In this document: positions 1 through 47,319 of the stretch, piece after piece
Layout: each line of letters begins with the position of its first letter
Position numbering within the stretch: the first letter of the stretch is position 1
Sequence record: NC_042046.1
From: Escherichia phage C119
DNA length: 47,319 nt
Direction: 5' to 3' (one strand)
Notes under the pieces: generated by a model
What the model was told of the DNA's origin: nothing
Database searches by the model: none
Seen by the model: only the letters and a program-made list of their open reading frames with translations
Made by a program: the position numbers and the translations under genes

Positions 1-190
1 GAAAAAAAAAAAAAGCCAGGATGAGATTCCTGCTGATTGGGTACGCTTTGATGCGCTACAGACGAATATCGTTGTTAATCATATCGCACTCGTATATAAA
101 GGTCGCGCAGGTATTGCTAAACTCAATCTGGACGCGGAACAGGAAAACCCGTATACTGATACCGTTCAATCAAATAAAGAGGATAAATTG

Positions 191-673
191 ATGATTAAGA
201 TTAAACTCGATGGCGAACAGGAGTTCGAAATCGCCCCGGAAGTTGCTAAGCATATCGAAGCTGTTAAGGCTGATGCGGAGCAGGCTAAAGCTAAAGCTGA
301 CACTCTGGAAGCTGAGCGCGACGCACTGAAAGCTAAAGTTGATGGCATCCCCGCTGAAATAGAAGCTGCTTTAGCCAAAGCTAAGACTGATGCTGACGAA
401 ATGGCTGCCCTGGTCGCAGTTGCCGCAGAAGCTGGCGTTAAATGTGATGGCCTGGATGCTAAAGCAATCAAAGTTGCTTACGTTAAAGAAGTGTCTGGTA
501 TTGAAGTTGCTGAGAAATCTGACGCATACATCGATGCAGCCTTTGATATCGCTAAAGATAGTGATAAAATGGCCGAAGCCCGCAAAGCAGTTGCTGCTGC
601 GGATAAATCTGACGCAGCCGACGCGCCTAAGAAATTAGACCCGCGCGCTCGCCTCGCTAAATTGAAAAAATAA
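191..673 (+). CDS. Head scaffolding-like protein (Ala/Lys/Glu-rich, predicted coiled coil)
   Basis: ATG 191 preceded by GAGG at 179-182; low-complexity A/K/E-rich product; sits between the head-morphogenesis genes and the capsid gene. The same frame is open upstream to the window start (position 2). Confidence 0.5.
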   Translation: MIKIKLDGEQEFEIAPEVAKHIEAVKADAEQAKAKADTLEAERDALKAKVDGIPAEIEAALAKAKTDADEMAALVAVAAEAGVKCDGLDAKAIKVAYVKEVSGIEVAEKSDAYIDAAFDIAKDSDKMAEARKAVAAADKSDAADAPKKLDPRARLAKLKK

Positions 674-684
674 GGAGTCTTAAT

Positions 685-1152
685 ATGGCAATTCGTCGTC
701 AAGCTACTGCTGGTATGGTTGCAGATACCTCTCTGTACAATATTGATGGTGCCTGTGTAACATCTTCGGCTCTCGTGCGCAATGTTGGCACTGCTGTTGG
801 AGTTGGTTCAGTTGTTGATGGTCACAAGGTGCTGGTAGCCCCGGCATCTGGTAACGTTTACGGCGTCCTGGTTAAGTCACACTATGAAAGCCCTCGCGGT
901 TCTTACGGTGGCGCTGTTGGCAATGTCGACAACTTCTCCGTGGCTAACGTAATGACTCACGGTCGAATCTGGATGGCAACTAGCCTTTCAGAAGCGCCTG
1001 CATTTGGTAGCGCCGTTACCGTTGATGCCAATGGGTTAGCAACAAGCGGTGATGCCTTAGGTACTAACTGGACATTCGCAGGTGGATTCCAGGCAGCTGA
1101 TGCCGCATCTGGAGAACCAGCGCTCGTTGAAGTCCAGGTCATTCAGAAGTAA
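685..1152 (+). CDS. Capsid-associated / head decoration-like protein (155 aa)
   Basis: ATG 685 with AAGGAG at 672-677; Gly/Val/Ala-rich small protein directly upstream of the capsid region; followed by a hairpin plus T-tract at 1170-1193. Confidence 0.45.
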   Translation: MAIRRQATAGMVADTSLYNIDGACVTSSALVRNVGTAVGVGSVVDGHKVLVAPASGNVYGVLVKSHYESPRGSYGGAVGNVDNFSVANVMTHGRIWMATSLSEAPAFGSAVTVDANGLATSGDALGTNWTFAGGFQAADAASGEPALVEVQVIQK

Positions 1153-1245
1153 TTATCACCTCCAAATCAAACCTCCTTCGGGAGGTTTTTTATTGCCTGT
1201 TTTCTGTTAGACTGTCAATGATCATTAACCAATCAGGAGATAGAA

Positions 1246-2691
1246 ATGGCTTACACAGAAATTGCTATGGCAGTAGGGAATTCACCTGAAATCTTAGCCA
1301 GGAACGTAAAAGTGATGATGTCATCAGGCTTTCAGCCATATGGTGATGTGCAGATGCTAAGCGGCACCCTCTTTGGCATGAAGATGGCGAAAGGAACAAC
1401 AAACAACGTTGAAGACTTCATGGTTACATCCGACACCACAATTCAGGGGCTAGTTAACATGGTTAACCGATATCTAGCGCAGGGCTGGAAAAGGTTTGGC
1501 AATGCTCACTTCGAGGATGGCGCTTATATTTCAGCTCTGGCTAAAGGTGATTTTGCAAGTGATGAAGGAGGGGGTTCAGGTGAAGCAGGTCCACAAGGTC
1601 CGGTTGGTCCGCAGGGTCCAGCAGGTCCCGCAGGCGAAGCTGGTCCGCAAGGCCCTCAAGGTCCAACTGGTGCAACTGGCCCAGCAGGTGCGGCAGGCGC
1701 CAAAGGTGACACTGGTCCGGCAGGCCCTGCAGGCCCGCAAGGTCCTCAAGGCGAGACTGGAGAAGCTGGTCCACAGGGTCCTATGGGCCCAACAGGTGCA
1801 ACAGGTCCGGCTGGCCCAAAAGGTGATAAAGGTGATGCAGGTCCAGTTGGTCCGGCAGGCTTGACATTCCGTGGGGTGTACGACGCAGCGACAGCTTACG
1901 TTAAAGATGATGTTGTTACATTCAATAACTCCAGCTGGTTTGCTACCACTGCTGTTACCGGAGAGAATCCAGATGTTAGCGATTCCTGGGAATTGCTGGC
2001 TGCACAAGGCGCCCCTGGCCCACAAGGAGCAACCGGTCCAGCAGGCCCGACTGGCCCAGCAGGCCCGGCTGGCATTCAAGGTCCTCAGGGAGAAAGAGGC
2101 CTTCAGGGTGAGCAGGGTCCGACAGGTCCGCAAGGCTTGCAAGGTGCAGCAGGTGCAGTCGGGCCTCAAGGCCCAGCAGGTCCTCAGGGTGAGCCAGGAA
2201 TACAGGGTCCTGTTGGCCATCAAGGTCCAATTGGCCCTAAAGGCGATAAGGGAGACCCGGGAATATCAAGAACCTTCATGAAAGTTAAAACATCGCCTGA
2301 TGTTGGCACTAATCATATGTTAAGACTACCAGCTCCTCTTAACAACCTATCTGTTGGTATAAGGCTTGATTCAACAGTGCTTTTTAGCATTAGAGCCTGG
2401 ATTGATGAGGGAAGCACTGCCAGGAACATAAGAGGTAATATTGAGGGCTTCAATAATACAGATAACTACTTCAATACAACAGTAAGGACAGCAATATCTT
2501 CATCTTCCGTAACTGGAACAGCATTGGTTACTGGCATTGGTGAATTTCAAAGAATAAGGCCATATGTTTTTAGCTTTTATGAAACCACAACAGGAACGGC
2601 GTGGAGAGTAACAATAAATCTATTTACAGTCGGTTATGTTGTGAGCGACAATCAAGACCTGTGTATAGAAGTTGTAAGGCTTGATGCATAA
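1246..2691 (+). CDS. Collagen-like triple-helix repeat protein (481 aa) with globular N- and C-terminal domains
   Basis: ATG 1246 with AGGAGA RBS; two long runs of Gly-X-Y repeats ([28 protein letters not shown]... and [31 protein letters not shown]...) separated by a non-collagen segment; C-terminal domain of about 140 aa. Confidence 0.8.
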
Positions 2692-2782
2692 AATCAATAG
2701 AGAAATGATTACTCTATTGTTCCAATTAAAATCTCGTGTATAATTGACACGTAAACTCATAAACAAAAGGATGCATCTTAAT

Positions 2783-3730
2783 ATGACTATCAAACTTGAC
2801 GCTTTCGAGCAAGAAAAGATCACTAACCACCTGCGAGCCATGGGCGTTGATAAGGCTGATGCAGCTGGTATCTGGACCGTGAAGCAGCTCACCGCAAGCC
2901 TGAATAAAGCTTACGAAACCGAGTACGACCAGAACTCCGTGGTAAACCTGTTCCCTGTAAGCAATGAAATTCCTGGCTACGCTAAGTACTTTGAGTATCC
3001 GGTATTTGATGGCGTTGGTATTGCTCAGATCGTGGCTGACTACACTGATGACCTGCCGCTGGTTGATGCTTTGGCAACTGAACGTCAGGGTAAAGTTTTC
3101 CGTTTCGGTAACGCGTTCCTGATTTCCATTGATGAAATTAAAGTTGGTCAGGCTACCGGTCAGTCTCTGTCTACTCGCAAGCAGTCTCTTGCTTTCGAAG
3201 CTCATGACAAGCTGCTTGATAAACTGGTGTGGTCCGGCTCTACTGCTCACGGCATCCCGAGTGTGTTCGACTACCCGAACATCAACAACGTTGTTAGCGG
3301 TGGTTCATGGTCTCAACCAACTACAGCAGTAAGCGATATTACAAGCCTGCTGGATATCATTGAGACTTCAACTAATGGTCAGCACCGTGCAACTCACCTG
3401 CTTCTGCCTACTACCGCCCGTCGTATTATGCAGAACCTGGTGCCTGGCACTTCTGTTAGCTACGGTGAGTTCTTCCGTCAGAACAATAGCGGCGTAACCG
3501 TTGAGTTCGTTCAGTACCTGAATGATTACAATGGCACTGGTACCTCTGCAGCTATCGCTTACGAGAAAGACCCTAACAACATGGCAATCGAGATTCCGGA
3601 AGCGACTAACGCACTGCCGGCTCAGCCGCGCGACTTGCACTTCCGTGTTCCGGTAACTTCTAAAGCAACCGGTTTGATCGTGTTTAGGCCTTTAACTATG
3701 GCTGTCATGAAGGGCATTACTTTTGCTTAA
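2783..3730 (+). CDS. Major capsid protein
   Basis: About 315 aa ORF in the canonical position after scaffold/decoration genes, followed by a strong hairpin plus T-tract terminator. Start is uncertain: in-frame candidates at 2744 (TTG), 2771 and 2783 (ATG); RBS AAAGGA at 2766-2770. Confidence 0.7.
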   Translation: MTIKLDAFEQEKITNHLRAMGVDKADAAGIWTVKQLTASLNKAYETEYDQNSVVNLFPVSNEIPGYAKYFEYPVFDGVGIAQIVADYTDDLPLVDALATERQGKVFRFGNAFLISIDEIKVGQATGQSLSTRKQSLAFEAHDKLLDKLVWSGSTAHGIPSVFDYPNINNVVSGGSWSQPTTAVSDITSLLDIIETSTNGQHRATHLLLPTTARRIMQNLVPGTSVSYGEFFRQNNSGVTVEFVQYLNDYNGTGTSAAIAYEKDPNNMAIEIPEATNALPAQPRDLHFRVPVTSKATGLIVFRPLTMAVMKGITFA

Positions 3731-3751
3731 TAGCACTTTTTGACAATGACA

Positions 3752-3778
3752 AGCACCCTTCGGGGTGCTATTTTTTTG
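3752..3778 (+). terminator. Rho-independent terminator after capsid gene
   Basis: agcacccttcggggtgct hairpin followed by T7 tract. Confidence 0.7.
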
Positions 3779-3800
3779 TCTAAAGAAAAGTGGAGGGGTT

Positions 3801-4331
3801 ATGATTAAGGTAAAAGACATAATTGATCTTATAAATGTTGATAGTGAAAGTGGGGTGATAACATGGAAGCTCAGGGATTCAGCGAGGCCTCAGTGGAATG
3901 CAAGGTTTGCCGGAAAGAGGGCAGGTAACGAGTTCCAGGTTAGAACTGGTGGAAAGTACAGAAGAATAAGGTTTACTGTTAACGGAGAGACGGCTACATT
4001 ATTGGAGCATAGGATGATCTGGGAATTTGTTAATGGTGAAATACCTGATGGGATGGAGATAGATCACATAGACAAAGACTCAACGAACAACTCAATATCA
4101 AACCTTAGGGTTTGCAACAGAGCTCAGAATAGCTCAAACAAGGATAGGCATGCTGACAATACATCTGGGTATAAAGGTGTATCATACTTTAAGCAAACCG
4201 ATAAGTTCAGGGCGAGAATAATGCATAATGGTAACGACATGCATATAGGTTACTTCGATACAGCTGAAGGCGCTCACCGGGCCTACATGTTAAAGCAGGC
4301 AGAGTTGTGCGGTGAGTTTGCTAGAGGGTAG
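3801..4331 (+). CDS. HNH homing endonuclease with AP2-like DNA-binding domain (copy 1)
   Basis: ATG 3801 after GGAGGGG RBS; motifs NGEIPDGMEIDHIDKD...NLRVCNRAQN (HNH) and SGYKGVSYFKQTDKFRARI (AP2-like); paralogous to ORFs at 21437 and 31791; free-standing between capsid and neck genes. Confidence 0.8.
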   Translation: MIKVKDIIDLINVDSESGVITWKLRDSARPQWNARFAGKRAGNEFQVRTGGKYRRIRFTVNGETATLLEHRMIWEFVNGEIPDGMEIDHIDKDSTNNSISNLRVCNRAQNSSNKDRHADNTSGYKGVSYFKQTDKFRARIMHNGNDMHIGYFDTAEGAHRAYMLKQAELCGEFARG

Positions 4332-4373
4332 CTATTGAGATATAATCAAACAATCGAAACAAAGGAGGAATAA

Positions 4374-4619
4374 ATGAAACTGTTACATAAAGGTGCTTGT
4401 GTTATCCGTCTTGGCGCAAAAGATTATCTTCCAGGCGACACTATCGAGGTTGAAGAGTTATCAGTTGGATTAAAGATTCTGGTAGCTGAAGGTAAGCTTG
4501 AGGTTGAGGATGACCACAAGGCAACTAAAGAAATCGAGCAGGAAGTTAAAGCCAAGGCTAAGCCCAAGAAGCAACCAAAGACTATTGATGAAGCTGAGAA
4601 TGGCGGCGACTACAAATAA
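4374..4619 (+). CDS. Hypothetical head/neck-region protein (81 aa)
   Basis: ATG with AAAGGAGG RBS; Lys/Glu-rich C-terminus; followed by a UUCG-tetraloop hairpin at 4626-4648. Confidence 0.6.
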   Translation: MKLLHKGACVIRLGAKDYLPGDTIEVEELSVGLKILVAEGKLEVEDDHKATKEIEQEVKAKAKPKKQPKTIDEAENGGDYK

Positions 4620-4663
4620 ACCAAAAGGGCGCTTCGGCGTCCTTTATTGTATGGAGATATCAC

Positions 4664-5065
4664 ATGAATGAAGAAGTAATTGCGTACATGCGCACGCTTT
4701 ACCCGCCTCTTAAGAGTCAGCCTGATGATGTTCTTAACGCATGGATTGAGGTAGCCAAGCTATTCATCTGCTTAGACAAGTTTGGTGACAAGCAGGTTCA
4801 GGCACTGGCATTCTACACTCTTCACTTGCTTAGCCAGGATATTGCACTTAAGACTGAGAATGATTCAAGCCAGACATCATCTGAGCGGGTTAAGTCCTAC
4901 TCACTTTCAGGCGAGTACACGATTAGCTACGATACAAGCACTGCCGCAGCTAGCTCATCAAACCTTGAGGAATCCTCATGGGGTAAGCTTTACATTGATT
5001 TGATGCGTCGCAAGGTTGGCCGCTGGGGCTTGATTACCTCTGGTGGGTCGAGGTGCTGCCGATGA
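4664..5065 (+). CDS. Head-tail connector / adaptor protein (133 aa)
   Basis: Position between capsid and tail genes; GGAGA RBS; stop overlaps the next start (ATGA). Confidence 0.5.
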   Translation: MNEEVIAYMRTLYPPLKSQPDDVLNAWIEVAKLFICLDKFGDKQVQALAFYTLHLLSQDIALKTENDSSQTSSERVKSYSLSGEYTISYDTSTAAASSSNLEESSWGKLYIDLMRRKVGRWGLITSGGSRCCR

Positions 5066-5430
5066 ATCATGCACTTTTGCAGCAGCAAATTAAGGCTGGT
5101 ATTAATCTCCTGTCAGATGGTGATGGAGTTTTCGAAGCTACGACACAGCCAGCCATCTCTATCGTTAATGGCTATGAAGTGCGCACACCAGGCACTTCCT
5201 ACACTGTGCGGGGTGTTATCCGTGAATTCAAAGCGAGAGACATTGATGGTGACATCATCAAATTCGGTGACCGTCGCGGAATTTTTACTGCTGATTCAGT
5301 TGTATCGGAAGGAGACCGCATCTACATTGACCAGGAAGCATACACAGTAATTGACCCTCGACCAGTGAAGCCAACTGGCACGGTAATCGCCTACAGGCCA
5401 GTATTGCGGAGGGCTGCAACTTATGGCTAA
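5062..5430 (+). CDS. Head closure / head-tail joining protein
   Basis: Translationally coupled (ATGA overlap at 5062-5065) in the neck gene run; alternative GTG start at 5053. Confidence 0.5.
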   Translation: MNHALLQQQIKAGINLLSDGDGVFEATTQPAISIVNGYEVRTPGTSYTVRGVIREFKARDIDGDIIKFGDRRGIFTADSVVSEGDRIYIDQEAYTVIDPRPVKPTGTVIAYRPVLRRAATYG

Positions 5431-5851
5431 TGACGTTGTTAGTTTCAGGAACTCAATTAACGCATGGATTGATGGAGTCACGGAGGGTGTAGAATTGATT
5501 GTGGAAGGCACATTAACCAAGGCTGCCAACGACATCGTTAAGCTATCTCCCGTTGATACTGGTCGATTTAGAGGTAACTGGCAGGCTACTGGCAACTCAC
5601 CAGCTGCGCAGTCACTGAATAATTACGACCCTGACGGAAATGAGACTCGAAACTCTCTTCGTAGGCAGATCTACGCACTCGCCAGTGATAACAATACGAA
5701 CGTAATTTACATTACCAACCGCCTTGATTATGCGCAAGGTCTTGAGTTTGGTTCATCCAATCAGGCACCTTCTGGTGTTCTTGGAGTTGTCCAAAAGAGG
5801 CTTGGCCGTTACTTTGCTGAGGCGGTACAGGAGGCTAAACGTGCACTATGA
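5423..5851 (+). CDS. Neck / tail completion protein (HK97 gp10-like by position)
   Basis: ATG 5423 after GGAGGG; 142 aa; coupled with flanking genes. Confidence 0.45.
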   Translation: MANDVVSFRNSINAWIDGVTEGVELIVEGTLTKAANDIVKLSPVDTGRFRGNWQATGNSPAAQSLNNYDPDGNETRNSLRRQIYALASDNNTNVIYITNRLDYAQGLEFGSSNQAPSGVLGVVQKRLGRYFAEAVQEAKRAL

Positions 5852-6239
5852 AATGATGGTTGCAGCAAGGAAACTGGTTAGTGATGCGGCAGTTGATATT
5901 GCTGGCAGTCTACCAGTTGCTTACGAGAACTGCGGATTCACGCCACCCAAAAACGGAAGTTCATGGTTGAAGTTTGATTACACGGAGGTTGATAGTGTGA
6001 CATGGGGATTGCAGCGAACATGCAGGTATTACGTAGGCATGGTTCAGGTCTCTATATTCTTTTCACCAGGTGAGGGGACTGATAGACCTCGCCAATTGGC
6101 TGGGCGATTGTCAGAAGCTTTCGCCGATGGTACAATGCTTGACAGCGGATACATTTATGAAGGCGGATCCGTATTTCCTCCAGTGAAATCGCAATCCGGC
6201 TGGTTCATTCCTGTCCGATTCTACGTACGTATGGATTAA
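5841..6239 (+). CDS. Tail terminator-like protein
   Basis: GTG 5841 six nt after GAGG (the ORF track extends to 5724, probably too far upstream); immediately precedes the major tail protein gene. Confidence 0.4.
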   Translation: MHYEMMVAARKLVSDAAVDIAGSLPVAYENCGFTPPKNGSSWLKFDYTEVDSVTWGLQRTCRYYVGMVQVSIFFSPGEGTDRPRQLAGRLSEAFADGTMLDSGYIYEGGSVFPPVKSQSGWFIPVRFYVRMD

Positions 6240-6253
6240 TTAAGGAGATTTAC

Positions 6254-6904
6254 ATGGCCCATCTCAGCAATGGCACACAAATTTTTTTGCAAGGCTCTAA
6301 ATCTGAATCGGTAGCCGTAACGGCTATCACTAACGCAGCTCAGCCAGTTATGACGGTAGCTGACGCTTCAACTTTCGCAGCTGGTGACTTCATTGTTGTT
6401 GAGTCATCTTCATGGTCTAAACTTTCAGAGAAACAGTTGCGAGTAGTTACATCAACGGATACAACAATTACCGTTGAAGGCATTGACACTACTGACCCGC
6501 TTCAGTTCCCAGCTGGCGGAACGGCATCGATCTACAAGGTTCTTACCTGGTATGAAATGCCTTGTGTTCAAGACGTTTCAACTGATGGCGGAGAGCAGCA
6601 GTTCGTTACTTATCAGTGCCTGGCTGATGACCGTGAGCAGCAGATTCCAACTTATAAGTCAGCGGTAAACACGACCTATACGTTTGCTCACGAGTTCACC
6701 AACCCGATCTACCCGGTACTCCGTAACTACGACGAGTCTGGCGCGCTGATTGCGATTCGTGCATACGTTCCTAAAGCTGGCGAAGTTCGACTTTGGACTG
6801 GCACTATCGCGTTTAACGAAACTCCAAACGTTTCCGTTAACGAGATCGAAACTGTATCCGTAGCAATTACGGTACGTGGACGCTATAGCTTCCTGGCTGC
6901 ATAA
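6254..6904 (+). CDS. Major tail protein
   Basis: ATG 6254 with AAGGAGA RBS; 216 aa; directly upstream of the chaperone/tape-measure genes; strong terminator follows at 6910-6935. Confidence 0.65.
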   Translation: MAHLSNGTQIFLQGSKSESVAVTAITNAAQPVMTVADASTFAAGDFIVVESSSWSKLSEKQLRVVTSTDTTITVEGIDTTDPLQFPAGGTASIYKVLTWYEMPCVQDVSTDGGEQQFVTYQCLADDREQQIPTYKSAVNTTYTFAHEFTNPIYPVLRNYDESGALIAIRAYVPKAGEVRLWTGTIAFNETPNVSVNEIETVSVAITVRGRYSFLAA

Positions 6905-6909
6905 CAATC

Positions 6910-6935
6910 AAGCCCCTTCACAGGGGCTTTTTTTA
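6910..6935 (+). terminator. Rho-independent terminator after major tail protein gene
   Basis: agccccttcacaggggct hairpin followed by T7. Confidence 0.75.
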
Positions 6936-6977
6936 TGTTATAATTTCAACTCAAACAAACACGAGAGGATTATTTAA

Positions 6978-7292
6978 ATGGCGAAATTCAAATTAAAATT
7001 AGGCGCGCTCCCTGATTTCAAGCTTCCGGTTAAGTTCCAGATGATCAACGGCGAGGAAGCTGAGGTTATCTTCAATGCCAAGCACCGTAAGGCTAAGGAG
7101 ATTCAGGAAGTATTCCAGACCGAAGGCCTTAAGGATTTTGACTTTGTTAAAGAGATTTGCAGCGGCTGGAACCTTGAAGAAGAATTTAACGACGAGAACA
7201 TCGAAGAGCTGGTATCTCTGTTCCCCGCATCCGTTCTGGCACTGACTAATGCTTACATGCAAGCTCTGGCGGGCCAGCGCGCAAAGGTCTAA
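6978..7292 (+). CDS. Tail assembly chaperone (lambda gpG-like)
   Basis: ATG 6978 with GAGAGGA RBS; 104 aa acidic protein immediately upstream of the tape measure gene. Confidence 0.7.
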   Translation: MAKFKLKLGALPDFKLPVKFQMINGEEAEVIFNAKHRKAKEIQEVFQTEGLKDFDFVKEICSGWNLEEEFNDENIEELVSLFPASVLALTNAYMQALAGQRAKV

Positions 7293-7643: not shown

Positions 7644-10600
7644 ATGGCAGAATTTGCAGGTATCACACTTGGCGTTGACGTTCGCCAGGTTGACCAGGGC
7701 ACAAAGTCCCTGCAAGAATTTAAACGTGCCAATGAACAGGCGGCAGCTGGAGTTAGCGAGTTCGTTAATGCTGAGCTGGTTGCGAAGAATCAGGCTCGCG
7801 ACACTGCAAGGTATCTTTCTGAGCAGAGAAGTGCTTTTCAGTCGCTTCAGTCTGCAATTGATCCAACAGCTTCAAAATTGCGAAAACTTCAAGATGCAGC
7901 AAGTTCTCTTGATAAGGCCTTCTCCGCAGGGGTTGTTCCAGAGGCTGAGTTTTACAGGCTTGGTGAAGCATTAGAAACGCAAACAAATAGGTTAATAAGG
8001 TCTAGGTCAGCATTAACTGAGGAGGGTAGGGCGGCTATAGAAGCTGCAAAAAATAAAGAGTCCGCTGAGAGGCAAGCGCAATCATTTATTAGGTCGCTTC
8101 AAGCGCAGGCTGATGCAGCGACATTAAGTAGGGATGAGTTCTTAAAGTTAAGGGCGGCACAGCTTGGAGTTAGCGATCAGGCAGCACCAATAATAGATAG
8201 AATAACACAGGCATCAAGTAACAATACTAACGCTATAGCAAATCAAAGTAGGGCGTTTCAGGCGGCTGGGATATCGGCAGGTCAGTACAATCAGGCCTTA
8301 AGGTTCCTTCCTGTACAGATCAATGATATCACCAGCTCGATTGCTAACGGTATGCCTTTATTTATGGTGCTTACCCAGCAAATACCGCAGATTACAGATT
8401 CATTTGGTGGATTTTCAAATACATTATCAGCTGCGCAAGGTGCAGTTATAGATTATGTATCATCAATAGGAGAGCTGAGAAGTTCATTTGCTGATGTTAA
8501 GACTCTTGGTGATGAGGCTATCTTAAGGTTTGGTCGTGCTGCAACTATATTTGGTGGCGCGATAGTTGCTTCATTAGCTGTTCTTGGTAAAGCCGCTTAC
8601 GACTCATTTATTGAGGTTAGGCAACTTAATAACGCAATAATTGAAACTGGAAGGTCGTCGACTTTATCAGTTGCCGCTATCAAGGATTACGCTGATCAGC
8701 TAAATGAAACATCAAGGGCAACAAAAGGTTCTATTGGTGACATTTACCAGTCGCTAGTATCAAACGGAAGGCTTACTGTTAGTCAGATTAACTTAATCGC
8801 TAAGTCTGTTGCTAACCTTTCAGCTGTTAGTTCAAGGTCTGCGGAATCAATAATATCTGACTTTGATAAGATAGCAAAAGATCCAGTTAAGGGGCTGATA
8901 GAGTTAGATAAGCAATTTAACTTTCTTAGCGAAGGGCAGTTGACCCTAGTTAACAACCTAAAAGAAACGGAAGGGCAAACAGCAGCAGTAACAGCAGCTT
9001 TAGAAATATTTGCAGCTAGAAATGAGTCAGTTACAAAGCAGATTGAAGGCTCGCTTACACCTCTTGAATTGGCTTGGGGCGATTTCCGTAAGTTCGTTTC
9101 AGACACATGGGATGCTATAGGTGACAGGACTATAGGAGCTCTAAACCTATTTACTGACGTTATAGCTGCGACTATTGAGCGAATAAGACTGATAATTGGC
9201 ACTGGCGACAAGCTAATAAATGATTTCGTAATACGCGGAATAGAGGCGTTACAAAAGATACCAGGAGCATCTGGCGTTGGTAATGGAATAGCCGAACAAC
9301 TAAGGAAGGATAATGACGCAATAGAAAAGGAAAACATAAGGCTAGCTAAATCTATCGCTGATAGGGATGCAAGGGTTCGCAGGGGCGAGACTGGTTACTT
9401 GAGTGTTGGAGAGGGTTCAGAAAGTCAAACTGGAACTTCTGATAGAGATTCAGAATCAAGAAGAAAGGCTTTGGCCGATGAGATTAAAGCAATTGAGGAG
9501 AGAAGTAAAAAGACAAAATCTGGAGCAAAAGAAGAGAGGGATTTGACTATAAGTTATGAGTCTGGCGTTCTAGCTCTTCAGGCTCAGCTTAAGGTTCTTC
9601 AGGAGCACCGCCAGATTAGTGATGTTATCAGTAACGAACGCAAGCAGCTTTTTGCGGAGGAAGCTAAGTTTGCAATCCTTAATGAAAGGCTTGCAGACGG
9701 AACCATCACAAAGCAACAGCGATCATTACTGTTGCAGCAGGATAAAATCTTAGGACTTGCTCGCGAGAAGGCTGAGATTGGCGACCAGATTGTGCTGCAA
9801 GAAAGGGCCAATAAACTTCTTGATGACAACATCAAGAAGACTCGGCAGATTAACGCTGAAGCGGCATCAATTAGTGTTGGAGCAGGATTATCTCAGCGCG
9901 AAGCGGAAAGGCGGCGTGAGTTGGCGGCGCTAGAAGCCCAGCAAATTTCTAAAGGTGGCTCCGTAGATGACACTGACTTCCAGGCTTTACTTCAGGCTCG
10001 TCAGAATTTCTACAATCAGGAAGATGCATTACGTGGTAACTGGCTGGCTGGCGTTAAATCTGCGTTTGCTGAGACGGCTGATGAATTGGCAAACTTTAAT
10101 CAGATTGGTTCCGAGCTAGCCATGAGTGCCTTTAACGGATTGACTGACCAGATAACAAACCTGGTAACTACTGGAGAAGCTAGCTTCCGTGAGTTTACCG
10201 CATCGATTCTGAAGCAGATTGCACGCATTGCAACGCAGCTACTTTTAATTAAGGCGATTGAATCAACCATCTCCAGTTTTGGCGGTAGTGGTGGTGCAAT
10301 TGGCTCTATTGGTAGCGCATTTGGTTTCGCTTCTGGCGGTTATACTGGAAACGGTGGTAAGTACGAGCCAGCTGGCACGGTGCATAAAGGTGAATTCGTC
10401 TTTACGAAGGAGGCAACCTCAAGGATTGGCGTTGATAACCTTTATAAGTTAATGCGCGGATACGCAAATGGTGGAGTGGTTGGTGCTGGTCCTGGCTATG
10501 CGACTGGCGGGCTTGTTGGTGGAAGTAACGTTAATGTTGGTGGAGTGAATGTTACCGTTCAGACAGGTCTTGGCGGTGGTGGCGGTAATGACGCTAAACA

Positions 10601-13509: not shown

Positions 13510-16500
13510 ATGGCACAAATGGTTAAACAAACAACGAGGTTATATGATATGGCCGATTTGCCAAAGATTTATGGAAGCAAGGGTGGTAGCAAGAAGCCGC
13601 ACACACCTGTAGAGCAAGAAGATAACCTGATTTCACTAAACAAGATTAAGGTGCTACTGGCTGTAGCTGATGGAGAGGTTGATTCTAGTTTCTCGCTCAA
13701 GGATGTTTACCTTGCTGACGTTCCGGTGCAAAACCAGGATAACTCATTCAACTATGAAGGTGTTACGGCAGAGTTTAGGTCTGGTACTCAGTCGCAGGAT
13801 TACATCGCAGGACTAGATGGCGCAGCTTCAGAGATTCAGGTTAGTCGTGAAATCAATAATGACACACCTTATATCATCGCAGTCAACAACAGTCAGCTAT
13901 CAGCAATTCGAGTCAAGCTGTTCTGGCCTCGACTCGTTAAGCAAGAAGAGAATGGAGATTTAAATGGCACAACATGTGAATATGCAATCGATTTATCAGT
14001 TAATGGCTCAGCGTACACTGAGTATATCAGAGGCGTGGCTAACGGTAAAACTACAACAGGTTACGACCGCAGTATCAGGGTTAACTTACCAGCCGAGTTT
14101 AGCAGCGCTCTTGTTCGTATTAGGAAGTTAACGCCAGACTCAACAAATAGCACCCTGGTTAACGGGATGCAGATCACAACCTATCAGGAAGTAATCGATG
14201 CTAAATTCCGCTACCCTCTTACGGCACTTGTTTACGTGGAGTTCAGTTCTGACCTGTTCCCTAACGGGATCCCAACTATAGCCATTAAGAAAAAGTGGAA
14301 ACTTATCCGCGTACCGACAAACTACAATCCAGAGACAAGGGCTTATAGCGGCACATGGAATGGAACTTTTAAAATGGCATGGTCTGACAACCCGGCCTGG
14401 GTTTTATATGATCTGGTGGTTAGTCAGCGCTACGGATTGGATCAGCGAGAGCTTGGTGTAGAGATTGATAAGTGGGGTCTGTATGAAGCAGCGCAATTCT
14501 GCGACCAGATGGTTCCTGATGGTAAGGGTGGAATGGAGCCGCGATATACTTGTAACGTTGTCATTCAGCAGAAAGTGGAAGCGTATCAGCTTATTCGTGA
14601 CATCTGTTCTATCTTCCGCGGTTTAACCTTCTATGATGGTGAGCAAATCGGGATTGTTGTAGACAGGCCGCGCCAGCCAAGCTATGTGTTCACTAATGAT
14701 AACGTTGTTGATGGATTGTTTAACAGGACATTCTCTAGCGACAAGAGCCTTTACACGACAGCCAACGTTCAGTTTGATGACGAGCAGAACAACTACCAGC
14801 AGGATGTCGAGCCAGTATTCGACTTAGAAGCAACACGCCGATTTGGTTACAACCCTGTAGACTTGACTGCAATTGGCTGCGTAAGGCGAAGCGAGGCTAA
14901 CCGTCGCGGGCGTTGGTTGCTGAAAACAAACCTTCGCAGTGAAACGGTAACGTTCACAACTGGCCTCGAAGGCATGATTCCTATGATTGGTGATGTAATT
15001 GCCGTTAATGACCAGGCTTGGTCAAGCAACTACACATTAAACCTTTCGGGTCGAATTGTTGAAGCTACAGGTTTGCAGGTGTTCGTGCCATTCGCTATTG
15101 ATGCTGACCCTGGCGACAGGATTTTAATCAACAAGCCAGATGGGAGCCCAGAGTACAGGACTATCGCTTCAGTATCTGCCGATAAGTTGACGCTTGAACT
15201 GAATACAGCATTCAGCTTCACACCTCAGCCGGATACGGTATTTGCAATCGACAAGCAGAATCTGGCGTTGCAGCAATACGTTGTGACAGGAATTCAAAAA
15301 GCAAACACGGACGGCGAGGATTCATTCCAGTACAGCATCACTGCGGTGCAGTATGACCCGAACAAGTATGACGAGATTGACTATGGTGTGAATATTGACG
15401 ACAGGCCAACAAGTATCGTTGACCCTGACAGGATTTTACCACCTGAAAATATCACCGTTACTAGTTACAGCAAGGTAGTTCAGGGCTTAAGCGTTGAGAC
15501 GATGGTTATTGGTTACGACAAGGTGCAGTATGCGAAAACATACAACGTACAGTGGCGCAAGAATAACGGCAACTGGATTAACGTACCTGAGACAGCTAAT
15601 ACCGAGGTTGATATTGAAGGCATTTACGCTGGCATCTACGACGTCAGGGTTCGCGCCGTAACTGACCAGAAATCAGTGTCGGCATGGTCAGATATCACGA
15701 CAGTTAGCCTGACTGGCAAGATTGGGGAACCTTCGGAGCCGCCTGTAATTACGGCTTCTGATGATGAGGTTTTCGGGATTAGGGTTAAGTGGGGCTTCCC
15801 TACTGACTCAGCTGATACCGCTTACACCGAGCTTCAGCAGGTTCCTGATAATGGTGACGGAACATATACACCGGAGAACGCGTCACTGCTTACGCTGGTT
15901 CCGTATCCTCAATACGAATATTGGCACACCACTCTACCAGCAGGTAACGTGAGGTGGTACAGGGCCAGGATTATTGACAGGATAGGTAACGTATCTCCGT
16001 GGACTGATTTTGTCAGAGGTATGGCATCCGATGATGTAAGTGCGATCATTGGTGACATCAAGGTTGATATCGAAAACTCTGATGGTTACAAGTATCTTCT
16101 CCAGAACGCCATTGATGCAAATACTGACATCCAGAATCAGGCCGAAGCTATAATCGAGAACGCCCTGGCAAATGATACTGACGTACGCGTTATGACAAAG
16201 GAGAATCTTAACAGGAAGGCGGAATATCGCCAGGCAGTAAGTTTGATTGCTGATGAAACTCAGGCCCGTGTGGACGCTCTCACGCAGCTTAAAGCGCAGA
16301 TTGATGATGAGATTGTTGGTCAGATTACGACAATTGAAACCGCACTTGCTACGGAGACCGAAGCCAGGGCTACAGCTGATACTCAATTAAGCTCAAGGCT
16401 TGGTGATAACGAGGCGGCTTTGAATCAGAAGCTTGACTCTTATGCCACGGTCGAAGGTGTTGGTGTTCAGTACGGCGTTAAGCTCGGCCTGAAGTACAAT

Positions 16501-16935
16501 GGGGTTGAGTACGGCGCTGGAATGAGCATGGAGTTAACTGGTAGTGGTGGAAATGTTCGTAGTCAGTTTATTTTTGATGCTAACAGGTTCGCAATCAGTA
16601 ACGGCATTAGTTCTGGTTCCGGTCAGTGGTCGCTACCTTTCGTTGTGGAGAATAACCAGGTGTTCATTCAGAGCGCGGTGATTCAGGATGGTTCAATTAC
16701 TAACGCGAAGATTGGTAACAGGATTCAATCAAACAACTATGTTGCTGGTAGTGCTGGTTGGGCAATTGATAAATCTGGTTTTGCTGAGTTAAGTAACGCT
16801 ACCGTTCGCGGTAGTTTGTACGCTAACAATGGTAACTTCGCGTTTAACGGAACCAACAATACTGTCGTAATAAACAATAACGGCATAACTGTTAATTTAC
16901 CAAATGGAGGTAGGGTAGTGGTTGGAGTATGGTAA
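13510..16935 (+). CDS. Host specificity / central tail fibre protein (lambda gpJ-like)
   Basis: 1141 aa, last gene of the tail-tip run, followed by a bidirectional terminator. Confidence 0.85.
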   Translation: MAQMVKQTTRLYDMADLPKIYGSKGGSKKPHTPVEQEDNLISLNKIKVLLAVADGEVDSSFSLKDVYLADVPVQNQDNSFNYEGVTAEFRSGTQSQDYIAGLDGAASEIQVSREINNDTPYIIAVNNSQLSAIRVKLFWPRLVKQEENGDLNGTTCEYAIDLSVNGSAYTEYIRGVANGKTTTGYDRSIRVNLPAEFSSALVRIRKLTPDSTNSTLVNGMQITTYQEVIDAKFRYPLTALVYVEFSSDLFPNGIPTIAIKKKWKLIRVPTNYNPETRAYSGTWNGTFKMAWSDNPAWVLYDLVVSQRYGLDQRELGVEIDKWGLYEAAQFCDQMVPDGKGGMEPRYTCNVVIQQKVEAYQLIRDICSIFRGLTFYDGEQIGIVVDRPRQPSYVFTNDNVVDGLFNRTFSSDKSLYTTANVQFDDEQNNYQQDVEPVFDLEATRRFGYNPVDLTAIGCVRRSEANRRGRWLLKTNLRSETVTFTTGLEGMIPMIGDVIAVNDQAWSSNYTLNLSGRIVEATGLQVFVPFAIDADPGDRILINKPDGSPEYRTIASVSADKLTLELNTAFSFTPQPDTVFAIDKQNLALQQYVVTGIQKANTDGEDSFQYSITAVQYDPNKYDEIDYGVNIDDRPTSIVDPDRILPPENITVTSYSKVVQGLSVETMVIGYDKVQYAKTYNVQWRKNNGNWINVPETANTEVDIEGIYAGIYDVRVRAVTDQKSVSAWSDITTVSLTGKIGEPSEPPVITASDDEVFGIRVKWGFPTDSADTAYTELQQVPDNGDGTYTPENASLLTLVPYPQYEYWHTTLPAGNVRWYRARIIDRIGNVSPWTDFVRGMASDDVSAIIGDIKVDIENSDGYKYLLQNAIDANTDIQNQAEAIIENALANDTDVRVMTKENLNRKAEYRQAVSLIADETQARVDALTQLKAQIDDEIVGQITTIETALATETEARATADTQLSSRLGDNEAALNQKLDSYATVEGVGVQYGVKLGLKYNGVEYGAGMSMELTGSGGNVRSQFIFDANRFAISNGISSGSGQWSLPFVVENNQVFIQSAVIQDGSITNAKIGNRIQSNNYVAGSAGWAIDKSGFAELSNATVRGSLYANNGNFAFNGTNNTVVINNNGITVNLPNGGRVVVGVW

Positions 16936-44971: not shown

Positions 44972-46246
44972 ATGGTAAAAGCAGACAGCTACGCAAACAT
45001 CTTTCTCAACGGGAGTGATGGTAGCGAGATTTACGGAAAGCTTGGCGGCCTTGGCCTAACAGCTCCAGCGCAGCTTGAGCAGCTTTACGTCAACAGCGCA
45101 CTGGTTCGCCGAATCATTGATATCGTGCCGGAGGTTGTACTTGGTGCTGGCTTTAACATCGAAGGCATCAGCGATGAAGGTGCTTTCTGGTCTCGATGGG
45201 ATGATTTAGACCTTTCAGATAGCGTAATTGACGCCCTGGCGTGGGCAAGGTTATACGGTGGCGCAGCTGTAGTAGCAATAGTTAAGGATGGTAGGGCGCT
45301 AACTAGCCCAGCTCGTGAAGGTGCGGAGCTCGAAACCGTTCGCGTATACGACCGGCAGCAAGTAAAAGTGCAGACTCGCGAGGAGAATCCACGAAACGCT
45401 CGATTTGGTAAGCCATTAACTTACCGCATCACGCCAAATGGTTCAGCTACGTTCTATGATGTACACTACACACGTTGCCATATCATTGATGGCGAGCGAG
45501 TGCCTAACAATTTACGTCGTAATAACGATGGTTGGGGCGCAAGCGTGCTAACTAGTGACTTAATCGACGCGATTGACGACTATCAGAACTGCGAGAGACT
45601 GGCTACTCAGTTACTGCGTCGTAAGCAGCAGGCTGTATGGAAAGCTAAAGGCCTTGCTGACTTGTGCGATGATTCGGATGGATTTGGCGCGGCTCGTTTA
45701 CGTCTGGCTCAGGTAGATAATAACAGTGGCGTTGGTCAGGCTATCGGGATTGACGCGGAGAGTGAAGAGTACAACGTTCTCAACTCAGATATTGGCGGTA
45801 TTGATACATTTCTGAGTCAGAAGTTCGATCGAATCGTTGCCCTGAGCGGCATCCATGAAATTATTCTCAAAGCCAAGAATACTGGCGGTGTATCAGCCAG
45901 CCAAAATACGGCTCTGGAAACTTTCTATGGTTACGTTGACCGCAAGCGCAAGGCTGAATTACTGCCCCTTCTTGAGTTCCTGATTTCATTCATTGTAAGT
46001 GAGCAGGAATGGTCAGTAGAATTTAACCCTCTATCGCAGATTAGCGACAAGGATAAATCTGAGATTCTTGAGAAGAACGTCAATTCAGTTGCCGCATTGA
46101 TTGCAGCTGGAATCATTGACGCAGACGAAGCAAGAGATACGTTGCGCGCAATTTCAACTGAGGTTAAGATTGGCGAAGGCTCAATTCAAACGGAGGTTGT
46201 AATTAATGAATCAGAAGACCCGCTGGATGTATCCGCAAATAATTGA
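44972..46246 (+). CDS. Portal protein
   Basis: 424 aa, directly downstream of terL, acidic C-terminus. Confidence 0.8.
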   Translation: MVKADSYANIFLNGSDGSEIYGKLGGLGLTAPAQLEQLYVNSALVRRIIDIVPEVVLGAGFNIEGISDEGAFWSRWDDLDLSDSVIDALAWARLYGGAAVVAIVKDGRALTSPAREGAELETVRVYDRQQVKVQTREENPRNARFGKPLTYRITPNGSATFYDVHYTRCHIIDGERVPNNLRRNNDGWGASVLTSDLIDAIDDYQNCERLATQLLRRKQQAVWKAKGLADLCDDSDGFGAARLRLAQVDNNSGVGQAIGIDAESEEYNVLNSDIGGIDTFLSQKFDRIVALSGIHEIILKAKNTGGVSASQNTALETFYGYVDRKRKAELLPLLEFLISFIVSEQEWSVEFNPLSQISDKDKSEILEKNVNSVAALIAAGIIDADEARDTLRAISTEVKIGEGSIQTEVVINESEDPLDVSANN

Positions 46247-46970
46247 GAGCCAGATTAATCGCAGCCTTTTGGTTGCGGTATCTGAACTTATTGAGCAAAT
46301 GAAGTTATCTGCAAAGAGGCTAAAAATTGACACAGCGCAGGAGATTGAAGAGGAAGATTCAGACCTTTCAGATGTAATCTCAGCGCTGCTATCTGGTTTT
46401 GTTTCCACTCTGCCTGCGCTGGCACTAGCAATATATCGTTATAACTCGGCGCAATTCCTTAAGGTGGCCAACAACTCCGGAGGTAAGGATAATCCTGTAG
46501 TTCTTGCGCTAGGATTGTATGGTATTAACGCGGATGAACCATGGTGGCTCGACACCAGGAACTCATGGATTGTTGGCACGCAGTTAAGTGCATCAAAGCT
46601 GCTAAACAACATCAAGGATGATTTCATAAACAACGCCATTACTGCGCAGGCTGGTAACACTGTTGACCTTGATGATAGATACCGAATCTACAGAAAGAGA
46701 ACAGCAAATATCGCTGCTGGAATTACAGGGTCTCTAAACTCAAACCTTATGCGGAGAAGGCTTGAAGATGCCGGTGTATCTCAGTATGTTTGGCGTGGTA
46801 GACTTGACGACAAAGAGCGACCATCTCACGTTTTGCGTGAGGGGGTTAGCTTTAAATCAGATGGTTCGGACGCTGGAAAACTTGACGGCCTTGCGATATT
46901 CCCCGGTCAGCAATACGGGTGTCGTTGCTGGGCTGTTCCTAAATGGGAGAATTTAATTAATGAAGAGTAA
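46206..46970 (+). CDS. Head morphogenesis protein (Mu F / SPP1 gp7-like)
   Basis: Position after portal; C-terminal ...GQQYGCRCWAVP resembles the conserved C-terminus of MuF-like minor head proteins. Confidence 0.65.
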   Translation: MNQKTRWMYPQIIESQINRSLLVAVSELIEQMKLSAKRLKIDTAQEIEEEDSDLSDVISALLSGFVSTLPALALAIYRYNSAQFLKVANNSGGKDNPVVLALGLYGINADEPWWLDTRNSWIVGTQLSASKLLNNIKDDFINNAITAQAGNTVDLDDRYRIYRKRTANIAAGITGSLNSNLMRRRLEDAGVSQYVWRGRLDDKERPSHVLREGVSFKSDGSDAGKLDGLAIFPGQQYGCRCWAVPKWENLINEE

Positions 46971-47313
46971 AATGCGTTATGATAGCGCCAAGGTAAAAGC
47001 CCGTTTCGATGAGAACGGTTTTCTCGTGGACACCCCAGTGGTTGCTCGCGTAGGTGTACAAACCTACTATATGCCAGATGGTTCAGAGCGCCGAGAGTTC
47101 CGTCCGGCTTCAGAGGTTTTTAAAGCCGATTCGCTGCAAAGTTACCAGGGTAAGCCGCTTACTCTTGGTCACGTGGTTGTAAACTCTGAAAATGCTAAAG
47201 AGGTGGTTGTTGGTTCTGTATCTGGGTCAGCAATGCGTCAGGACTCGGCAGTGATTGTTCCTCTTACCGTTTACGACAAGGAAGCAATTGAGAAGGCCAA
47301 AAGAGCCAAGTAA
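46960..47313 (+). CDS. Hypothetical head-module protein (117 aa)
   Basis: ATG 46960 overlapping the MuF-like stop; lies between the head-morphogenesis gene and the scaffold-like frame at the window edge. Confidence 0.45.
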   Translation: MKSKMRYDSAKVKARFDENGFLVDTPVVARVGVQTYYMPDGSERREFRPASEVFKADSLQSYQGKPLTLGHVVVNSENAKEVVVGSVSGSAMRQDSAVIVPLTVYDKEAIEKAKRAK

Positions 47314-47319
47314 GGAAAA

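Follow-up and report, generated by a model that had tools for sequence, protein, structure and literature searches.

Analysis of the genome of Escherichia phage C119 (NC_042046.1; the whole stretch of 47,319 nucleotides is called the window here) showed that the gene at positions 1246 to 2691, directly upstream of the major capsid protein gene, probably encodes a collagen-like fibre that consists of three chains and is anchored on the exterior of the capsid. The protein of 481 amino acids (aa) has a five-part layout: a tandem DUF1737 domain (N-domain), a collagen tract of 33 Gly-X-Y triplets, a CBM5/12-like knob, a second tract of 29 triplets, and a C-terminal domain of 140 aa (C-domain). With a DUF1737 anchor and the capsid gene as neighbour, a capsid fibre with an exchangeable tip is the most likely identity of the product, rather than the "tail fibre" or "DNA polymerase" of database labels; we infer its location from domain homology, gene context, and co-variation. 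Collagen-like capsid accessory proteins and decoration by DUF1737 are each known, and their combination (in T1-like coliphages, an anchor in two copies, a long collagen stalk whose two segments flank a CBM-like knob, and tips that can be exchanged) was undescribed in the literature searched. New here, from comparison of sequences, are an N-terminus that appears to be a tandem copy of the domain docking on the capsid hexons of phage phi24B, and an N-domain that co-varies with the capsid protein while the C-domain is exchanged freely.

The two Gly-X-Y tracts were uninterrupted; when the protein was shuffled 2000 times, the longest run had a mean of 3.2 triplets and a maximum of 7. The Pfam family Collagen (PF01391) matched with an E value of 2.7e-27 (94.7 bits, cut-off 27.2). 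Proline was found in the X position of 20 of the 33 and 14 of the 29 triplets, and the Y position often carried Gln, Ala, or Thr, as in bacterial collagens. The GC content of the tracts was 0.64 compared to 0.39-0.48 in the remainder of the gene, and five overlapping open reading frames (ORFs; 77-215 aa, both strands) fell within them. The excess was confined to codon positions 1 and 2 (GC at position 1, 0.87), while GC at position 3 (0.27-0.36) matched the rest of the phage; the excess therefore comes from Gly, Pro, and Ala codons and gives no hint of foreign DNA. The ratio of nonsynonymous to synonymous substitutions (dN/dS) between the window and Escherichia phage vB_EcoS_Rogue1 was 0.09-0.16 in the plus frame in every segment, collagen tracts included, so the annotated frame is a real gene, and it is under purifying selection. 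A sequence-only reading of this DNA had described two long collagen tracts with non-collagen flanks, a place between the scaffold/decoration genes and the major capsid gene, and GC-rich repeats creating spurious ORFs on both strands; the results agreed with it in all three respects, with a cement protein (PF22758) encoded upstream and the capsid protein (PF09950) downstream.

Comparison of sequences and profiles showed that the N-domain is homologous to DUF1737 (PF08410). The window N-domain scored 20.5 bits (E 4.5e-4; cut-off 24), while those of phages MM01 and RobRod40 scored 37.5 and 38 bits, each in two stretches; the DUF1737 of NanS-p from phage 933W, used as positive control, scored 65.4 bits. 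Twelve half-units taken from six phages showed a common pattern when aligned (alignment A1), and 9 of the 12 matched Pfam DUF1737. On BLASTP the N-terminus of 933W NanS-p matched both units (E 4e-6 and 3e-4), and on hhalign the 12 half-units matched its DUF1737 at 97.2% (E 4e-11). An AlphaFold2 (AF2) model of the N-domain, built from a 5-sequence alignment, had a predicted local distance difference test (pLDDT) score of 87.3 and a predicted template modelling (pTM) score of 0.80. It showed the order strand-helix-strand-strand twice (strands E and helices H at E5-11, H14-26, E30-39, E42-49 and E54-63, H66-78, E82-90, E93-102), that is, a helix and three strands per unit, as described for the DUF1737 of phi24B gp84. 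Among the Foldseek matches of the model in BFVD were the orthologues and other proteins with a tandem; proteins with one domain, annotated as DUF1737, also matched, over half the length. Word-indexed protein searches yielded few and fragmentary sequences (1 with the N-domain, 0 with the C-domain, and 4 with the N-domain alignment), so that no deep alignment was possible for structure prediction. A match of the N-domain to designed TPR proteins in the PDB (E 8e-12) was rejected as spurious: a 22-residue helix-turn motif (aa 77-98) is repeated in the targets, and no stretch was significant alone.

Cryo-electron microscopy of phi24B showed a hexamer, formed by the N-terminal DUF1737 of gp84, a NanS-p esterase, in the pore at the centre of capsid hexons; the domain consists of a helix and three antiparallel strands, and the authors describe it as a capsid-binding domain (bioRxiv 10.64898/2026.04.10.717836). 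In the literature searched, this preprint alone ties DUF1737 to capsids, and no paper tied collagen to Rogunavirus or Drexlerviridae structure.

The collagen-like protein of a close relative was found in the virion. CsCl-purified Rogue1 virions gave about 6 bands on sodium dodecyl sulphate polyacrylamide gel electrophoresis (Kropinski et al. 2012), three of which were identified by matrix-assisted laser desorption/ionization: gp21 at 52.7 kDa (59.5% coverage), the major capsid protein at 30.5 kDa, and the major tail protein at 25.9 kDa (PMC3496638). This gp21 is the 481-aa orthologue, as shown by its locus tag (F856_gp21), the four GPVGP motifs as published, and a calculated mass of 48.5 kDa; its N-domain is 93.5% identical to that of the window. 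The Rogue1 authors pointed out that the name DNA polymerase I given to the JK06 homologue is an error, and they weighed the possibility of an intein; collagen was not recognised and no location was assigned (PMC3496638). The sequence-only reading had suggested a capsid fibre or decoration protein displaying a C-terminal binding domain and had named virion mass spectrometry as a check. The published Rogue1 data answer that check by placing the orthologue in purified virions (PMC3496638), and DUF1737 homology, gene context, and co-variation, which are indirect but converge, support a probable place on the capsid; the C-domain may bind a ligand, as its modular exchange suggests.

The five-part architecture was found in Rogue1, Escherichia phage phiKP26, UDF157lw, MM01, e4/1c, and RobRod40, in every case with the capsid gene next downstream; Rogunavirinae and RobRod40, a Braunvirinae phage, conserve this place between the cement and capsid genes. 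An exhaustive HMMER search gave 17 matches, 10 of which were true tandem-DUF1737 proteins; among the metagenomic proteins, P0005, P0008, P0009, and P0014 had the five-part architecture and P0011 had one tract. Two matches (P0007 and P0016) were rejected as unrelated repeat proteins by sequence, and P0010, P0012, and P0017-19, which matched part of the query in several stretches, were left out.

Across seven phages, a small and related sample, the identity of the N-domain followed that of the capsid protein (Pearson r 0.91, Mantel p 0.0006), while that of the C-domain did not (r 0.21, p 0.23), despite the C-domain coding region adjoining the capsid gene. This co-variation in sequence is supportive of capsid attachment, not decisive. 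At least six mutually unalignable C-domain types (132-165 aa) were found, shuffled relative to the N-domain types. The type of the window (type A) demonstrated 71% identity in Rogue1 and JK06 and 75% in the myovirus UPEC06. Opt-719 is close to the window in capsid protein (99%) and N-domain (92%) and has an unrelated tip, whereas UDF157lw and MM01 share a tip (93%) and have N-domains only 40% identical. Between the window and Rogue1, the synonymous divergence (dS) was 1.19 in the C-domain and 0.2-0.6 elsewhere, which fits acquisition of the C-domain by recombination.

For the middle knob, Pfam CBM_5_12 (PF02839) scored 22.9 bits (E 9e-5; cut-off 26.2), and matches were found in the knobs of 10 of the 11 family members (best E 4e-6). 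The knob profile matched chitin-binding domains of chitinase 60, ChiC, ChiB, and ChiA1 in the PDB (E 8e-6 to 3e-2); these chitinase domains ranked below the top PDB match, chain 7b5h_AE ("All3316 protein", E 5e-6). For the C-domain there was no Pfam match at E ≤ 1, and nothing credible was found by sequence in the PDB with the domain alone or with a 4-sequence profile; a Nudix match (E 0.047) of only 47 residues was taken as chance. Structure prediction of this domain, which the earlier reading had proposed, gave an all-beta single-sequence AF2 model with 9 strands, but at low confidence (pLDDT only 48), and the fold could not be named.

Table 1. Coordinates of the collagen-like protein gene, its segments, and other features of the window.
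Feature	Position	Strand	Remarks
Collagen-like protein gene, complete, 481 aa	1246..2691	+	ORF list; stop TAA 2689-2691; full-length match to PHROG 5073, E 5e-166
N-terminal domain, aa 1-108, two tandem DUF1737-like units (~aa 1-50, 54-101)	1246..1569	+	Proposed capsid anchor
Collagen tract 1, 33 Gly-X-Y triplets, aa 109-207	1570..1866	+	Script; Pfam Collagen; ~28 nm if triple helix
Middle knob, aa 208-254, CBM5/12-like	1867..2007	+	Pfam CBM_5_12, E 9e-5
Collagen tract 2, 29 Gly-X-Y triplets, aa 255-341	2008..2268	+	Script; ~25 nm
C-terminal distal domain, type A, aa 342-481	2269..2688	+	All-beta single-sequence model; exchangeable
Shine-Dalgarno AGGAG	1235..1239	+	6 nt upstream of ATG; read from sequence
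Terminator-like hairpin (1169-1188) and T-run, between cement and fibre genes	1169..1194	+	8-bp stem AAACCTCC/GGAGGTTT, loop TTCG, then TTTATT
Prohead protease/scaffold, C-terminal part, upstream	188..673		Profile search
Cement/decoration protein, upstream neighbour	685..1152	+	PF22758 Phage_cement, E 1.8e-22
Major capsid protein, downstream neighbour	2771..3730	+	PF09950, E 7e-41; start per phiKP26 annotation
Central tail fibre J	13510..16935	+	phrog_31, E 0; separate from collagen-like gene
Lateral tail fibre gene, 904 aa	22409..25126	-	phrog_4818, full length, E 0; separate from collagen-like gene

The fibre proposed from these data would be assembled as follows. Three chains would wind into triple helices of ~28 and ~25 nm, giving a fibre of ~55-60 nm, about one capsid diameter (the Rogue1 head measures 53 nm; PMC3496638). 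The N-terminal DUF1737 units would dock on the centre of the major-capsid-protein hexamer, as in phi24B gp84. Two units on each of three chains make six, so that the three-fold fibre would fit the six-fold capsomer through a pseudo-hexameric ring with the ring number of phi24B. On a presumed T=7 capsid there would be up to 60 fibres, which would fit the prominent gel band. A surface ligand, such as a glycan of the host or the environment, would be bound by the distal C-terminal domain and perhaps by the CBM-like knob, which would help the phage to adsorb reversibly; for the C-domain, a ligand is supposed only from modular exchange. The tip would be swapped among relatives by recombination, probably via the repetitive collagen DNA, and the gene itself would be accessory, the slot in relatives being empty or holding other surface-display genes. 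A further elaboration is put forward tentatively, with less confidence than the capsid fibre itself: the tandem DUF1737 could be an adaptation that supplies six anchors to plug the hexamer pore, with up to ~60 fibres of ~55-60 nm and freely exchangeable tips making a "hairy" siphovirus whose head, in place of the tail, makes the first reversible contact with host or mucosal glycans, and the same anchor logic could recur with non-collagen stalks, as in phage DTL.

Several points weigh against the capsid fibre. The window N-domain lies just under the Pfam DUF1737 cut-off (20.5 vs 24 bits), and its model found nothing under E 0.14 by Foldseek in the PDB, a copy from which the phi24B model was apparently missing. 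The BLASTP and hhalign alignments of unit 1 to the 933W DUF1737 end at residues 33-37, short of the anchor residue Tyr42, and by eye the unit 1 loop SGTLF has no Tyr or any aromatic residue (in unit 2, Y94 was paired with Tyr42 in BLASTP, in a weak alignment). The phi24B result comes from a single 2026 preprint, in which gp84 binds only hexons on the icosahedral three-fold axes (bioRxiv 10.64898/2026.04.10.717836); a T=7 lattice has no such hexons. The capsid proteins of phi24B/933W (PF13252) and the window (PF09950) showed no sequence similarity. T=7 is itself assumed from genome and head size, and we infer both the model of three times two anchors and the number of fibres per capsid purely by reasoning. 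The Rogue1 study shows presence in the virion only (PMC3496638). Seven bands were excised from AHP24-type phages (Niu et al. 2014), and the collagen-like protein is not listed among them; the cement protein is also unlisted, and the proteomics, restricted to those seven bands, is uninformative. Lastly, RefSeq names the product "tail fiber protein", PHROG 5073 and many collagen-containing PHROGs carry a tail fibre label, and Vequintavirinae proteins with a side tail fibre annotation contain a cassette whose C-domain is 75% identical to that of the window.

These labels and the shared cassette speak for a lateral (side) tail fibre, which would be fixed to the tip or tube of the tail by its N-domain and would recognise the receptor with the C-domain as its own tip. 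So do the collagen-knob-collagen order, which is like that of the EPclB prophage side tail fibres and phi24B gp61, and the modular exchange of tips, which is typical of receptor-binding proteins. In the Vequintavirinae relatives, however, the N-terminal anchor is another one, and the annotations were made automatically. In the 481-aa protein there was no Pfam match to Phage_tail_N (PfN, PF08400) at E ≤ 0.1, and neither PfC (PF06820), Pf2 (PF03406), nor other tail-attachment domains were found by Pfam; the N-terminus is instead a DUF1737, a capsid-hexon binder in phi24B, and it co-varies with the capsid protein. The gene lies within the head module, ~11 kb from J, in a phage that already has J and a lateral fibre of 904 aa, both encoded away from that module. 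A tail fibre is therefore unlikely. Only slightly less doubtful is a location on the head away from the hexon centre, at a three-fold or quasi-three-fold site (for example, atop cement trimers) or as neck whiskers, with DUF1737 as a generic docking module. A trimeric fibre suits three-fold sites, the gene comes directly after the cement gene, and gp84 is limited to three-fold-axis hexons, of which T=7 has none; the dissimilar capsid proteins and the alignments ending short of Tyr42 point the same way. Yet the N-domain tracked the capsid protein (r 0.91) more than the cement protein (r 0.67; same seven phages), and e4/1c and RobRod40, with cement proteins 97% identical, have N-domains only 41% identical. 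A three-fold site would also leave the conserved duplication, six units per trimer, unexplained, and the collagen-like trimer of SPP1 gp12 sits on the hexamer centre.

A product outside the virion, whether a replication enzyme ("DNA polymerase I"), an intein protein, or a non-coding GC-rich repeat with chance ORFs, is very improbable. The DNA polymerase label is found in the GenBank/RefSeq records of JK06, phiKP26, phiJLA23, Sf12, and Opt-719, and is repeated in PHROG 22681 (phrog_22681; category DNA metabolism); this PHROG consists of the tandem-DUF1737 N-domain and the first collagen repeats, with no polymerase domain. Pfam found no polymerase or intein domain in the 481-aa protein, and the segment "absent from JK06" is the collagen repeats and the knob. 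Together with the Rogue1 orthologue in purified virions (59.5% coverage) and the plus-frame dN/dS of 0.09-0.16 in all segments, this ruled out a non-structural role. A capsid fibre thus stands as the most probable reading.

The nearest parallel for the anchor is phi24B gp84/933W NanS-p, which like the window protein has an N-terminal DUF1737 (profile match 97%, E 4e-11), a C-terminal cargo, an abundant virion band, and an accessory role. The window protein differs in its duplicated anchor and in its cargo, a trimeric collagen fibre with knob and beta tip instead of a SASA esterase. Its gene is in the head module, whereas that of gp84 is next to stx and lysis genes; the capsid is of the PF09950 family and probably T=7, whereas that of phi24B is PF13252 and T=9; and gp84 has reported proteolytic processing, of which the window protein gave no sign. 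A collagen-like capsid protein in this gene position has a precedent in SPP1 gp12, a non-essential collagen-like trimer of 64 aa and 8 triplets that sits on hexamer centres and is encoded between the scaffold and capsid genes. Both are accessory proteins with a Gly-X-Y motif and a gene immediately upstream of the major capsid gene; SPP1 gp12 has no globular anchor, knob, or tip, whereas the window protein has 62 triplets, DUF1737, and exchangeable distal domains, and on BLASTP the similarity between the two was limited to the GXY repeats. The exosporium nap protein BclA of Bacillus anthracis and the PRD1 spike P5 have an N-terminal lattice anchor, a collagen-like or Gly-rich variable stalk, and a C-terminal beta-sandwich knob, and form a hair-like layer; they resemble the window protein in layout, by analogy only.

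The capsid-surface proteins T4 Hoc, T5 pb10, and phi29 gp8.5 are non-essential, have proposed roles in adhesion, and occupy hexamer-centre or quasi-three-fold sites (PMC7602432). They differ from the window protein as immunoglobulin (Ig)-like monomers or alpha-helical coiled-coil, with neither collagen nor DUF1737. Side tail fibres of the EPclA-D/lambda type and phi24B gp61 share with the window protein a collagen shaft broken by a small globular repeat (collagen-Pf2-collagen in EPclB) and a trimeric C-terminal end, and EPcl shaft lengths vary in multiples of three residues (Ghosh et al. 2012, PMC3368898). The EPcl/lambda Stf type carries PfN, PfC, and Pf2, whereas on Pfam the window protein has none of the three; its knob matched CBM_5_12, not PF03406, its N-terminus is DUF1737, and its gene is in the head module.

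The window belongs to the genus Rogunavirus (Drexlerviridae) and is a complete or nearly complete genome; its first 6 kb demonstrated 98.6% identity to phiKP26 and 91.7% to Rogue1. By comparison with phiKP26, the start of the window falls inside the prohead protease/scaffold gene (1-673), and its last ORFs (46206-47319) are upstream head genes (portal, head morphogenesis), so the sequence looks like a whole, circularly permuted genome. The start of the major capsid protein at 2771 follows the phiKP26 annotation, while the ORF list has a TTG at 2744 instead. Directly after the capsid gene, at 3765-4331, is an HNH endonuclease gene (HNH_3 and AP2 domains), probably a mobile homing endonuclease. 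An HNH gene is present at this position in Rogue1 and there is none in JK06 and Opt-719, while the phiKP26 RefSeq record annotates nothing at this place but a short "HNH endonuclease" on the reverse strand.

The slot between the cement and capsid genes was empty in KP36 and vB_EcoS-12210III and differently filled in other relatives, which suggests that the collagen-like gene is accessory and that the slot collects surface-display functions. Phage atuna (Tempevirinae, MN850620) has at 2331-3113 a second paralogue of the cement protein (PF22758, E 3e-22), in one chain with a Big_2 Ig-like domain (E 6e-7); judged by its sequence, the fusion would be another way to display a domain on the capsid. 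In DTL (NC_047893), the slot (~2390-3108) holds an ORF of ~230 aa whose N-terminus resembles a tandem DUF1737 (hhalign 93%, E 2.6e-7) and leads into a non-collagen part, rich in Ala and Gly, whose C-terminal end is coiled-coil-like by eye; RefSeq leaves the ORF mostly unannotated, with only its last 58 aa as a "virion structural protein". Opt-719 (OL539451) carries an extra gene for a 428-aa SGNH/GDSL hydrolase (2234-3520; Lipase_GDSL_2, E 5.5e-11) in the interval between the cement and collagen-like genes, which corresponds to 1153-1245 of the window. The N-terminal 170 aa of this hydrolase gave no Pfam match, and the extra gene is also found, by product annotation, in Phleasolo, Sadiya, and Opt-79. 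The hydrolase may be displayed on the capsid, because an SGNH-type esterase decorates that of phi24B. In Opt-719-type records the collagen gene is split in two ORFs and has a different C-terminal domain. One or two extra small ORFs (52-186 aa) with no convincing Pfam match lie between the cement and collagen-like genes of MM01 (2312-2872), e4/1c (2293-2874), and RobRod40 (2329-2874), and in the MM01 record a terminator is annotated on either side of the extra ORF.

The type-A tip was also found outside the Drexlerviridae. In UPEC06 (Vequintavirinae, MW250786), a 532-aa protein (7831-9429) has a collagen-knob-collagen-tip cassette with 51 and 49 triplets and the same knob, behind a different N-terminus of 45 aa. 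Its gene is three genes after the capsid gene, beside that of a 1266-aa collagen protein (3318-7118). The 45-aa N-terminus is also present in A73, W70, A7_1, and A5-4, with more distant versions in Certrevirus phages, and the collagen protein encoded next to the capsid gene of Certrevirus CB7 was found in the virion by mass spectrometry (PMC7344957). The UPEC06 and Certrevirus collagen proteins may be head fibres too. In JK06 (2233-3069), no more than 10 triplets separate the same N- and C-domains, and the junction falls within a 28-nt repeat; at the corresponding spot, phiJLA23 (2501-3400) shows frame shifts and ambiguous bases. These short versions could be real recombinational deletions or collapsed repeat assemblies; they were not accepted as trusted natural deletions on account of the repeat junction, the ambiguous bases, and the errors that the Rogue1 authors reported in the JK06 sequence (PMC3496638).

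If the capsid fibre is confirmed, the annotation "DNA polymerase I" or "tail fiber protein" would be mended in many Drexlerviridae genomes, and several of the mislabelled phages are candidates for the biocontrol of E. coli O157:H7. The capsid-binding role of DUF1737, a very recent finding, would then be known from two capsid lineages and with a further kind of cargo, and two anchors per chain would solve the mismatch of a trimeric fibre and a six-fold capsomer. The tandem DUF1737 with its trimeric stalk would be a natural scaffold for capsid display. The region between the cement and capsid genes would be a hot spot where T1-like phages swap display modules (collagen fibres with at least six tips, an Ig domain, and an SGNH hydrolase), with a bearing on adherence to host or mucus, phage pharmacokinetics, and capsid-display engineering.

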